The notes beneath the pieces are model-generated. The model saw only the letters and a list, made by a program, of their open reading frames with translations, made no database searches and was not told the DNA's origin. This document shows, in pieces, positions 9,038-40,056 of a stretch of DNA of 43,596 bases. The stretch lies in the sequence record PX871048.2. The stretch is one strand, 5' to 3'. Each line of letters opens with the position of its first letter. Positions within the stretch are counted from its first letter, which is position 1. A program made the translations under genes and the position numbers. The DNA is from a phage.

Positions 9038-9064
9038 AAGGCCCCGTCTGGGGCCTTTTTTTTT
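9038..9064 (+). terminator. rho-independent terminator (GGCCCC-GTCT-GGGGCC plus T9)
   Basis: GC hairpin followed by T-run directly after tailspike stop. Confidence 0.75.
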
Positions 9065-25402: not shown

Positions 25403-25475
25403 CCAATTGACACCTAAGACTAATCCGACGATACTTAAATCACCTCCTGTTCTATCCCTCTGCTCTCCAGTTTTA

Positions 25476-26889: not shown

Positions 26890-27170
26890 TGGCACGCACT
26901 GTTGCATCGAGATTCACTGATATTGAATCTGCGATAGAAGAAGCTGTTTATAGCAAATTCTGTAACCCCTCTGCGACCCATAACTATGGGGTTATTATTA
27001 AATACGGCAAGTTTGAAATCAGGAGAGTGCGCGCCGGTCGTCCGCACGAGTTTTTATGGACCACAGAAAGCCTCATCCCGCGATGCCACGTTTACACAAG
27101 CGGTGCACATACGATTTTTGTAGACCTGGACAAGAAAGATATTACTGTCACTAAAGGAGAGACAAATTGA
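26889..27170 (+). CDS. hypothetical protein
   Basis: 93-aa ORF. Confidence 0.45.
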   Translation: MARTVASRFTDIESAIEEAVYSKFCNPSATHNYGVIIKYGKFEIRRVRAGRPHEFLWTTESLIPRCHVYTSGAHTIFVDLDKKDITVTKGETN

Positions 27171-27403
27171 TTACCAGCATCCCTAAACTGATCGAAGAGT
27201 ACGGCAATATGTCTGAGACATGCCGACAAACCGGCATCAGCGAAATGACGATTGCGAAGTACCGCAACGACGTGAACTGCGAGCGACATGTAATTTATAA
27301 CAACCGTCTGATGACACACGTTAAGACAAGCCCGGTGTTATTCACGCGCCGTGGTATCACTAAAACTGAGCAACGCATTGCTAAAGAGGAGAGCGGGGAA
27401 TGA
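27167..27403 (+). CDS. HTH DNA-binding protein, candidate late-gene regulator
   Basis: NMSETCRQTGISEMTIAKY HTH-like segment; last sizeable gene before the late-operon control region. Confidence 0.4.
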   Translation: MITSIPKLIEEYGNMSETCRQTGISEMTIAKYRNDVNCERHVIYNNRLMTHVKTSPVLFTRRGITKTEQRIAKEESGE

Positions 27404-27501
27404 AATTGCTAATCATCCCTAACGCTTGGGCTATCGCTGTAGCTAACGACCACTACGGCGGCGACGGTAAAAGAGCACCGCGACACGGCCTATATAACTG
27501 A
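27400..27501 (+). CDS. hypothetical peptide (33 aa)
   Basis: ATGA-coupled; below cutoff. Confidence 0.3.
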   Translation: MKLLIIPNAWAIAVANDHYGGDGKRAPRHGLYN

Positions 27502-27504
27502 TAC

Positions 27505-27530
27505 AAGCCCTCTACGGAGGGCTTTTCTGT
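27505..27530 (+). terminator. rho-independent terminator (AGCCCTC-TACG-GAGGGCT plus T-run)
   Basis: hairpin then TTTTCTGT. Confidence 0.6.
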
Positions 27531-27542
27531 ACATCCCGCCCA

Positions 27543-27624
27543 ATCCCCTTATATAATCCCTTTAGACGCGCAGGGCGCGTCTGGTGCGCTCTGATGGTCA
27601 GACGCATATGCAAGGGGATTATAT
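27543..27624 (+). promoter_or_regulatory. late-operon control region: TATAAT-like box, 10-bp inverted repeat ATATAATCCC/GGGATTATAT flanking perfect hairpin AGACGCGC-AGG-GCGCGTCT
   Basis: symmetric structure immediately upstream of small terminase start. Confidence 0.4.
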
Positions 27625-28171
27625 GAAGCTGAAACTCAAGCAGCCATCGCCAGAGGTGGTGCAAGCTGCACATGAAGAAGCTGTTAGCGCAAACCGTCGC
27701 CGTAAACGACCGCGCGGTGAACAGAGCCTTTATCAATCGTCCCGTAATTCCGCAGCGTTGTGGGACACGGACTATTGCGACGAATTGATTCGTTTCTTCG
27801 ACCGCACGTCATGGGAGGCTATGCCGACCGGTGCGCACGGAGACTACAAAGCAGTCATTGCGGATAAACCGCCATCACTGGCTCGCTTCGCCTTACACAT
27901 CGGTGTCACTATCCCGATTATTAAGCTGTGGCTGCGTGAGATTCCGGCTTTCGCAGAAGCCTATGAAACTGCACAGGCGCTGGAAGAGGCGTATTTCACC
28001 GAGACCGGGGCCGCCGGTATCTCGGCTACGTTTGCCGCCGCGAAGCTGGGCCTCGGAAAAGAGAAACCAGTTGAATCAAGCGAAGAAACTGCACCTACTG
28101 AGATTATTTTCAGTGTTGCAGAGCCCGTGGGTAAAATCGTAACAACGAATATGGGTGAGGTAGAGGAATGA
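27623..28171 (+). CDS. terminase small subunit
   Basis: 182 aa directly upstream of and overlapping large terminase; RBS AAGGGGA; start 27623. Confidence 0.55.
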   Translation: MKLKLKQPSPEVVQAAHEEAVSANRRRKRPRGEQSLYQSSRNSAALWDTDYCDELIRFFDRTSWEAMPTGAHGDYKAVIADKPPSLARFALHIGVTIPIIKLWLREIPAFAEAYETAQALEEAYFTETGAAGISATFAAAKLGLGKEKPVESSEETAPTEIIFSVAEPVGKIVTTNMGEVEE

Positions 28172-29418
28172 GTATTCAGCTATCCGCCCCGCAGGCACTG
28201 TTCCTGAATTGCGATAACAAATACAAGGCCTATGTCGGCGGCTTCGGCAGCGGCAAGACATTTGTCGGCTGTCTGGACCTGCTTACTTTTATGCTAAAGC
28301 ATCCCGGTACGCGCCTCGGTTACTTCGGACCAACATACCCGGCCATCCGCGACATCTTCTACCCGACATTCGAGGAAGCGGCTAACCTGCTCGGCCTCGA
28401 TGTTCTGGTTAAATCCGGAGATAAAGAGGTTGTTGTTACCCGCGGTAAGACGGTGCTCGGAACTGTTATCTGCCGCTCGATGGATAACCCCGGCTCGATA
28501 GTCGGCTTCAAAATCGCGGCTGCGGTCGTGGATGAGCTGGACGTATTGAGCCGCGAGAAAGCTGAGCTGGCGTGGAACAAAATCGTAGCCCGTATGCGTC
28601 TTGTTATTCCTGGCGTAACCAACCACATCTCTGTAACCACGACGCCGGAAGGGTTCAAGTTCGTCTACGCCAAGTTCAAAGAGAATCCGACACCGAGTTA
28701 TTCAATGGTGCAGGCTTCCACTCACGAGAACGCGCGGTTCCTGCCGCCTGACTACATTAGTTCGCTGACCGAGACTTACCCCGCGCAACTGATTAACGCG
28801 TACCTGAACGGGGAGTTCGTCAACCTGACATCCGGCAGCGTGTACTACGCCTATGACCGCCGTAAGCATCGCAGCAAAGAGACAATTCAACCGGGCGACA
28901 CGTTGTACATCGGGCAGGACTTCAACGTTACGAAGAACGCCAGCGCCGTGTATGTACAGCGTAAAGATGGCTGGCACGCGGTGGCGGAACTGAAGGGTCT
29001 GTTCGATACGCCAGACACCGTGCGTGTAATTACTGAGAAGTGGAAGTCCCAAGGACACCGCATCGTCGTTTACCCCGACGCCAGCGGCAAGAACCGCAAG
29101 ACAAACTCGGCATCAATCTCAGATATCGCATTACTCCAGCAGGCCGGTTTTGATGTTCGCGCTAAACCAGCCAACCCTCCGGTTAAAGACCGTGTTTTAG
29201 CAGTGAATACCGCGCTGGAAAAAGGTAAGCTGTGGGTTAATGACCACTTATGCCCGGAGATAGCCAAGACGCTGGAGCAGCAGGCATACGACGATAACGG
29301 AGAGCCCGCTAAAGACGGCGTTATCGACCATATGGCGGATGCTCTCGGCTATCCTGTAGTTTACGAGATGCCGGTGGTTAAACCAGTAATCAACATCCCG
29401 GTGACTTTCGCACTTTAA
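28168..29418 (+). CDS. terminase large subunit
   Basis: Walker A GGFGSGKT, Walker B AAVVDELD, nuclease-like C-terminus; 416 aa. Confidence 0.85.
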   Translation: MSIQLSAPQALFLNCDNKYKAYVGGFGSGKTFVGCLDLLTFMLKHPGTRLGYFGPTYPAIRDIFYPTFEEAANLLGLDVLVKSGDKEVVVTRGKTVLGTVICRSMDNPGSIVGFKIAAAVVDELDVLSREKAELAWNKIVARMRLVIPGVTNHISVTTTPEGFKFVYAKFKENPTPSYSMVQASTHENARFLPPDYISSLTETYPAQLINAYLNGEFVNLTSGSVYYAYDRRKHRSKETIQPGDTLYIGQDFNVTKNASAVYVQRKDGWHAVAELKGLFDTPDTVRVITEKWKSQGHRIVVYPDASGKNRKTNSASISDIALLQQAGFDVRAKPANPPVKDRVLAVNTALEKGKLWVNDHLCPEIAKTLEQQAYDDNGEPAKDGVIDHMADALGYPVVYEMPVVKPVINIPVTFAL

Positions 29419-30903: not shown

Positions 30904-30936
30904 AGAAAAAGGCCCCTTAAGGGGCCTTAGTTTTAT
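30904..30936. terminator. bidirectional terminator (perfect palindrome AAGGCCCCTTAAGGGGCCTT flanked by A/T runs)
   Basis: serves + portal gene and convergent minus moron gene. Confidence 0.7.
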
Positions 30937-40032: not shown

Positions 40033-40056
40033 AAGGCCCCGAAAGGGGCCTTTTTC
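40033..40056. terminator. bidirectional terminator (AAGGCCCC-GAAA-GGGGCCTT plus T-run)
   Basis: ends + late operon and minus accessory island. Confidence 0.75.

Follow-up and report, generated by a model that had tools for sequence, protein, structure and literature searches.

A conserved two-hairpin RNA leader predicted at the head of the late operon in Kagunavirus-like siphophages

Genes on either side of the operon junction

The window analysed here is the whole of a 43,596-nucleotide stretch of phage DNA (sequence record PX871048.2). About 1.2 kb around the junction upstream of its terminase genes shows 88-92% nucleotide identity to the E. coli Kagunavirus phages BUCT789, Ro145clw, K1G and K1ind1, and, as judged from sequence, the phage is a Kagunavirus-like siphophage (Guernseyvirinae). 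Upstream of the junction lies a plus-strand operon of small genes, with consensus promoters near 25407 and 25529 at its head. Near the end of this operon, a gene of the plus strand (27167..27403) encodes a small HTH protein of the NinH family (78 aa). An HTH-like segment had been noticed here from the letters alone, and profile searches bear it out: the product matches Pfam NinH (PF06322) at 31.7 bits, exceeding the gathering cutoff of 29.8, and phrog_268 at 1e-30, and it is annotated as NinH in relatives. A sequence search of the PDB with this protein gave no homologue with a solved structure. The last gene of the operon is a conserved 33-aa ORF (27400..27501, plus strand; phrog_32259 at 1.3e-18), which overlaps the ninH stop codon (ATGA), sits between ninH and a terminator, and is annotated in BUCT789. 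Some relatives carry an extra 297-nt gene, annotated as 'zinc finger protein', between ninH and the 33-aa ORF (in BUCT789, L001 1801-2097, corresponding to about position 27403 of the window), and alignments to relatives therefore fall into two pieces.

Downstream of the junction, the order is terS, terL and the portal gene. The small terminase gene terS (27623..28171, plus strand) encodes 182 aa, of which residues 1-167 match phrog_3064 at 1.4e-68, and the large terminase gene terL (28168..29418, plus strand) matches Pfam Terminase_6N (3.6e-21) and Terminase_6C (1.5e-11). The interval between the two gene groups is an ordinary boundary between a rightward early/middle operon and the packaging/structural operon, consisting of a terminator, a promoter and a 5' UTR. 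The regions upstream of terS were compared among 50 IMG/VR loci, 15 Dhillonvirus loci and GenBank phages at increasing distance (FSL SP-031, Tsm2, PhiSTP2, rolling, VLCpiS11a, vB_STM-ZS, ChibiTotoro, 37P2, phiEap-2, AH01, SenTO17, TS33, eiAU and Otaku), and the same layout of terminator and promoter is found in all of them.

The terminator and the predicted late promoter

The upstream operon ends with an intrinsic terminator at 27505..27531 on the plus strand, where the sequence-only reading had placed one at 27505-27530. It consists of an 8-bp stem (AAGCCCTC at 27505-12 and GAGGGCTT at 27517-24) closed by the loop TACG and followed by the tail TTTTCTGT to 27531, and it folds at -14.9 kcal/mol (z = -4.9). 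It thus combines the G+C-rich hairpin, the U-tract and the operon-end position of an intrinsic terminator. The stem has undergone a compensatory change from CTC/GAG to CGC/GCG in Jersey-type and other lineages, and the loops are variable. Because its U-tract is interrupted (UUUUCUGU), some read-through is likely. A simple terminator scan missed this element because A-U pairs were counted in the stem.

Fused to the terminator is a sigma-70-type promoter, TGTACA-18-TATAAT, with 10 of the 12 consensus matches. The -35-like hexamer TGTACA (27528..27533, plus strand) overlaps the end of the terminator T-tract, and the -10 hexamer TATAAT (27552..27557, plus strand) is the sigma-70 consensus and is conserved. 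The consensus match by itself is at chance level (5 found against 4.7 expected in 5 kb). The -35 hexamer is invariant in Kagunavirus and Jerseyvirus loci, with an 18-nt spacer, and elsewhere it is replaced by TTGCCT-17 in Cornell, Tsm2 and VLCpiS11a types or by an extended -10 (TGnTATAAT) in Dhillonvirus. Positions T1, A2, A4, A5 and T6 of the -10 hexamer are invariant among 41 distinct sequences from more than 10 lineages, Jerseyvirus having the variant TACAAT and ChibiTotoro the variant TATCAT. The spacer has diverged in sequence but not in length, and the distance from the -10 hexamer to the hairpin downstream is also kept. The constant -10, the lineage-specific -35, the fixed spacer length and the free spacer sequence indicate a real promoter, and the two hexamers, a spacer within the 16-18 nt usual for the class and the conservation in relatives place it in the sigma-70 class. 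A start site near 27564 is predicted, +1 in the window being an A at 27564. Published work on these genera yielded no mapped start site, late promoter or pac site.

The discriminator CCCTTT (27558..27563, plus strand) precedes the predicted start and would be untranscribed from this promoter; in read-through RNA it complements the Shine-Dalgarno sequence of terS. Within Kagunavirus it is variable (CCATTT, CCAATT, CTATTT and CCTTTT), and these changes are uncompensated. On either side of the -10 box stands a direct repeat, AATCCCCTTA / AATCCCTTTA (27542-27564), whose first copy, within the promoter spacer, differs from relative to relative (AATCACC, AATACCC, AATCCAC). Four Dhillonvirus records (L061, L062, L063 and L066) have as position 1 exactly the TATAAT of this promoter, which may be a numbering convention or a physical end. 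A minus-strand promoter read from the right arm of the outer inverted repeat described below was considered and rejected, since the minus strand offers no usable -35.

The sequence-only reading had proposed a late promoter with activator sites. A terminator followed by a conserved promoter before terS stands; no activator sites were seen, since neither the spacer nor the DNA upstream of it contains a conserved repeat. The corresponding explanation, in which the NinH-like HTH protein switches on the late promoter at the symmetric sites, would fit the position of its gene 100 nt upstream and the weak -35 with an 18-nt spacer, which make an activator conceivable, and late activators encoded beside terS exist in Gram-positive phages, RinA being an example (PMC3152322). 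Nevertheless, the symmetric elements lie downstream of the predicted +1, where the hairpin co-varies as an RNA helix, and NinH is non-adjacent in Dhillonvirus, Tsm2, VLCpiS11a, phiEap-2, AH01 and eiAU, all of which keep the module, so that a functional link between NinH and the module is unsupported. Moreover, the lambda NinH protein was reportedly described by Chakraborti and colleagues in 2020 as a nucleoid protein resembling Fis, not as a specific activator. Activation by NinH is thus a most improbable explanation.

In SPP1, pacL overlaps the promoters of gene 1. Like the SPP1 junction and the staphylococcal RinA-dependent late promoter, the present junction has a promoter directly before terS at the head of the morphogenesis operon and a small DNA-binding protein gene just before that promoter. 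It differs from them in that the upstream protein matches NinH only and no protein of the RinA/ArpU type, that conserved DNA repeats are absent from the promoter, and that the conserved symmetry is transcribed from the predicted start and behaves as RNA.

The two-hairpin leader and its conservation

The perfect 8-bp-stem hairpin with an AGG loop noticed in the first reading is present at 27564..27582 on the plus strand. As DNA it reads AGACGCGC-AGG-GCGCGTCT and as RNA AGACGCGC-AGG-GCGCGUCU, and its first base is the predicted +1. This hairpin (H1) is followed by a single G and a second hairpin (H2; GUGCG-C-UCUGA-UGG-UCAGA-CGCAU, 27584..27607, plus strand), which was recognized by folding and covariation, and the two make up a predicted RNA leader of 44 nt (27564-27607). 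The window is enriched in perfect 8-bp hairpins, with 15 where dinucleotide shuffles give 4.4 +/- 2.5. The weight of the evidence lies in conservation, because the promoter match and the 10-bp inverted repeat discussed below are, each alone, at chance level.

When 21 diverse sequences were folded one by one, most gave both H1 and H2. A covariance model of the two-hairpin motif (R1) finds the leader in 73 of the 74 relatives' loci examined, at 26.8-91 bits, and the leader-bearing groups comprise Kagunavirus, Jerseyvirus, Cornellvirus, Dhillonvirus, Eiauvirus and unclassified Guernseyvirinae. In the window R1 finds one copy; a second was sought there and rejected, the antisense R1 match merely mirroring the outer repeat. 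No match was obtained on 79 unrelated decoy loci (about 700 kb) sharing the pattern TATAATC...GATGGTC. A search of IMG/VR with the pattern TATAATC-N32-40-GATGGTC gave 120 mostly random matches, and R1 passed one of the 80 loci scanned, which is a known Dhillonvirus locus. The leader is absent from Klebsiella phiKp_7-2, a more distant TerS relative. When 27350-27750 was scanned with all 4227 Rfam families, there were two matches (E = 5.4 and 8.9), far under the gathering scores and regarded as noise.

Base pairs were counted over 45 distinct rows and 18 pairs, with 500 shuffles and with slid-partner controls. Standard pairs occupy 91.4% of the cells, against 78.3% in shuffled alignments and 23-56% with the partners slid, and 15 of the 18 pairs have changed on both sides (shuffle mean, 7.7); none of the 500 shuffles matched the observed values, shuffle and Wilcoxon figures alike overstating independence because the sequences are phylogenetically related. 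Both sides are altered in 6 of the 8 pairs of H1 and in 9 of the 10 pairs of H2, where 96.8% of cells are paired. The H1 stem differs from lineage to lineage (AGACGCGC in the window, AAAGGCCC in Tsm2, GUGGCCC in VLCpiS11a, GGCGGGCC in eiAU and AGGUGGU in L064), and in some lineages stems have been swapped outright while the loops persist: the H1 loop is [A/U]GG in nearly all lineages, and the H2 loop is A-UGG-U with invariant U-G-x-U columns. About 80 cells hold G·U against few A·C, and an error of register in Dhillonvirus H1 accounts for most of the non-G·U mismatches. Of 25 distinct cores, 24 are more stable when folded as the sense strand than as the reverse complement (mean, -20.1 against -16.6 kcal/mol). 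Covariation, G·U tolerance and sense-strand bias together indicate that the symmetry of H1 and H2 acts at the RNA level rather than at the DNA level.

The same observations bear on the proposal that the symmetric elements are a packaging-related DNA structure, that is, a pac region or a TerS recognition site from which headful packaging starts. Pac sites are commonly located within or next to terS, the window has three copies of AGACGC (27564, 27577-82 inverted, and 27600), and the leader is co-inherited with this TerS family across genera. In addition, PhageTerm found no fixed ends in a Kagunavirus (PMC9825357), which fits headful packaging. On the other hand, evolutionary change in the hairpins keeps pairing and not sequence, with no conserved DNA repeat: the third AGACGC reads AUACGC in Jerseyvirus, where its pairing partner has changed with it, and AGACGC is wholly absent in Tsm2, VLCpiS11a and eiAU. 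That G·U is tolerated far more than A·C and that the sense strand is favoured would also be hard to explain for duplex DNA. A packaging site is accordingly judged very improbable.

H2 also bears on the start of terS, as the mechanical ORF call begins this gene at GTG 27584, inside H2. The true start is ATG 27623, preceded at a distance of 5 nt by the Shine-Dalgarno sequence AAGGGG (27612..27617, plus strand), and a G-rich element is found at this place in all lineages. An N-terminal extension of TerS from GTG 27584 through H2 was rejected, as the differences between Kagunavirus and Jerseyvirus there are all non-synonymous and pair-compensating, and in Dhillonvirus, Tsm2 and VLCpiS11a the reading frame is interrupted or runs into a stop. 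With the start codon corrected, many database records prove to open the gene inside H2. GenBank records of the SETP3 and SETP13 types (L027, L028, L038, L045 and L048) have as genome position 1 the corresponding ATG, which precedes the real start by 39 nt, and terS of FSL SP-031 is likewise annotated from this ATG. Residues ~22-30 of TerS (27686-27712) form an arginine-rich stretch, NRRRKRPRG, and the N-termini of other lineages are also basic; this stretch could be for DNA binding, or hint at binding of RNA of its own leader.

Possible roles of the leader and of the outer repeat

It is probable, on balance, that the interval is the promoter of the late operon with a structured 5' leader serving as a 5'-terminal stabiliser or a factor-binding site, and neither an activator operator nor a pac site. 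Transcription from upstream would halt at the intrinsic terminator (27505-27531), and host sigma-70 RNA polymerase would restart at the promoter fused to it (-35 at 27528-33, -10 at 27552-57, predicted +1 at ~27564). The new transcript would have a leader of 59 nt, the first 44 nt of which would be folded as H1 and H2 with a one-base separation, while the Shine-Dalgarno sequence and the terS AUG after H2 would stay single-stranded. Because the first base of H1 is the predicted +1, transcripts from this promoter should open with a flush 5' hairpin, which might protect the long late mRNA against RppH- and RNase E-mediated decay that depends on the 5' end.

Stabilisation seems the most likely role of the leader. 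Stem-loop stabilisers at the 5' terminus of mRNA, of the type found in the E. coli ompA 5' UTR, were reportedly described by Emory, Bouvet and Belasco in 1992. Such stabilisers tolerate at most about 2-4 unpaired 5' nucleotides, and the distance of H1 from the seventh base after the -10, taken as the predicted +1, is 0-3 nt throughout the 19 lineages examined. The ribosome-binding site would likewise be left open, and for each of the 19 lineages tested folding predicts greater accessibility of the stretch from the Shine-Dalgarno sequence to the AUG in the promoter transcript than in read-through RNA. Unlike ompA-type stabilisers, the leader has two hairpins with conserved triloops, neither of which the stabiliser model requires. 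A stabiliser role leaves the constant loops and the conserved H2 unexplained where the stems are entirely replaced, and both hint at a more specific function. Conservation of the triloops ([A/U]GG and A-UGG-U) suggests that the leader is in addition read by some factor or by RNA polymerase itself.

The outer inverted repeat offers a different connection between the promoter and terS. As first noticed, the TATAAT box lies within a 10-bp inverted repeat pair, whose perfect core is ATATAATCCC at 27551-60 and GGGATTATAT at 27615-24 (the right arm had been put at about 27614). The pair extends to 13 nt with 12 of 13 positions complementary, the left arm (27551..27563) covering the -10 box and the discriminator and the right arm (27612..27624) covering the Shine-Dalgarno sequence, the spacer and the AU of the AUG. 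It does not exceed what chance provides, as perfect 10-bp inverted repeats with a 20-100 nt spacer number 1 observed against 3.9 expected from shuffles of the window, and the pair degenerates in most relatives. Because the left arm precedes the predicted start site, the repeat could form only in read-through RNA. If the repeat is functional, transcripts that escape the terminator would have their Shine-Dalgarno sequence and AUG paired to the -10 box and discriminator, the terS ribosome-binding site would be buried, and TerS would be translated only from promoter-initiated transcripts.

Folding of the window agrees with such a switch: the minimum free energy fold of 27500-27660 makes a three-way junction (-66.1 kcal/mol, z = -4.5), and the unpaired probability from the Shine-Dalgarno sequence to the AUG falls from 0.55 to 0.19 in read-through RNA, returning to 0.44 when the left arm is shuffled (none of 30 shuffles gave a value as low as the native arm). 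The same left-arm dependence is predicted in L009, VLCpiS11a, 37P2 and TS33, and lineage-specific matching pairs are found (CCCAUU/AAUGGG, CUCCU/AGGAG, CCUG/CAGG and CCGUG/CACGG). However, besides the chance expectation already given, Kagunavirus loci vary most in the left arm, without compensation, most relatives have a C mismatch in the right arm, and a left-arm-specific effect is absent from Cornell-type phages, AH01, Dhillonvirus L055 and eiAU. The energy of the outer duplex is -14.1 kcal/mol in the window, -10.3 in typical Kagunavirus and down to -3 in variants, and cognate duplexes are barely better than non-cognate ones (-8.0 against -7.4 kcal/mol). A functional outer repeat is therefore a tentative idea, doubtful as a general rule; possibly the repeat is a secondary, lineage-specific refinement and no conserved property of the module.

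If a factor or RNA polymerase reads the leader, antitermination comes to mind. The put RNAs of phage HK022 suppress terminators via the zinc-binding domain of the RNA polymerase beta' subunit. The leader might be a functional analogue of put, that is, a cis-acting RNA which modifies the polymerase or recruits a phage or host factor, so that the late transcript passes the internal terminators of the ~20-kb late operon. Its position at the extreme 5' end of the only recognisable late-operon promoter is suitable for such a role, and its two hairpins with a 0-3 nt joint resemble putL, which lies at the transcript start and has two stems with a one-base joint (PMC9378689), the start site of the leader being a predicted one. 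The constancy of the loops across genera while stems are replaced, strong plus-strand terminator-like hairpins inside the operon at 30909, 33246 and 35637, and the failure of Pfam and PHROGs to recognise a Q-like gene among the upstream ORFs are in line with it. Internal terminators after capsid genes are, however, common in phages without antitermination, and the leader is shorter than put (44 against ~70 nt).

A covariance model of put (R2) built from 7 put sequences, all of the putL type, scores putL at 97 bits and recovers HK022 putR, on which it was not trained, at 39.6 bits. At 27564-27607 and at the leaders of 11 relatives' loci R2 finds nothing (best leader-region score, 7.2 bits, E = 6.4), and R1 gives no match to putL (E = 0.78). 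The comparison covered stems I and II and the conserved blocks of put (AACGGCG, UAAACCAUGCGUCGG and GGCGGGYUCAGGNNGARCGGCAAU), and these blocks, the last taken as GGCGGGYUCAGG..CGGCAAU, are absent from the leader. Since the two models fail crosswise and the put blocks are missing, the leader is not a member of the put family. H1 and putL do have a 5' stem AGACG...GGCGCGUCU in common, but the shared bases fall in a part of put that co-varies and is not conserved (AGUCG/CGACA in HK639 and phiEt88), and homology on this ground was rejected. A put-like function is possible by analogy, and it is considered rather improbable.

It is also unlikely, though a little less so, that the leader represents an undescribed class of cis-acting phage RNA, unrelated to put in sequence, which loads onto RNA polymerase or binds a phage or host protein via the [A/U]GG triloops. 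In Guernseyvirinae, Dhillonvirus and Eiauvirus, such an RNA would render late transcription resistant to terminators or would gate the synthesis of TerS.

Whatever its function, which is predicted here from sequence comparison, the leader is a well-supported structured RNA without an Rfam family, common to several genera of enterobacterial siphophages, and hence a candidate new RNA family. Phages of this kind find use in phage therapy and as synthetic-biology chassis, and are included in the BASEL collection. The timing and upkeep of late gene expression in these commonly isolated Salmonella and E. coli siphophages appear uncharacterised, and no Q-, N- or RinA-like regulator was recognised in the window. 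A small, precisely bounded RNA element with clear covariation at the head of the late operon is a convenient target for mutagenesis.

Some further observations concern the leader and the terminators. A pseudoknot joining the H2 loop to GCCAUC of terS was considered and rejected, as it is not conserved. The almost invariant apex of H2, GAUGGU (27593-27598, about +30 to +35), matches the minimal -10-like pattern nAnnnT and recalls the -10-like element proposed for sigma-dependent pausing in putL. The RefSeq record of HK022, in which putR is found at L082 1958-2024, annotates neither put site. In the window, three terminator-like hairpins (9038-9057, 30909-30928 and 40033-40052) have an identical 8-bp stem, AAGGCCCC/GGGGCCTT; the first two score as terminators on either strand and the third on the minus strand only, and the three bound the late operon and the portal gene.
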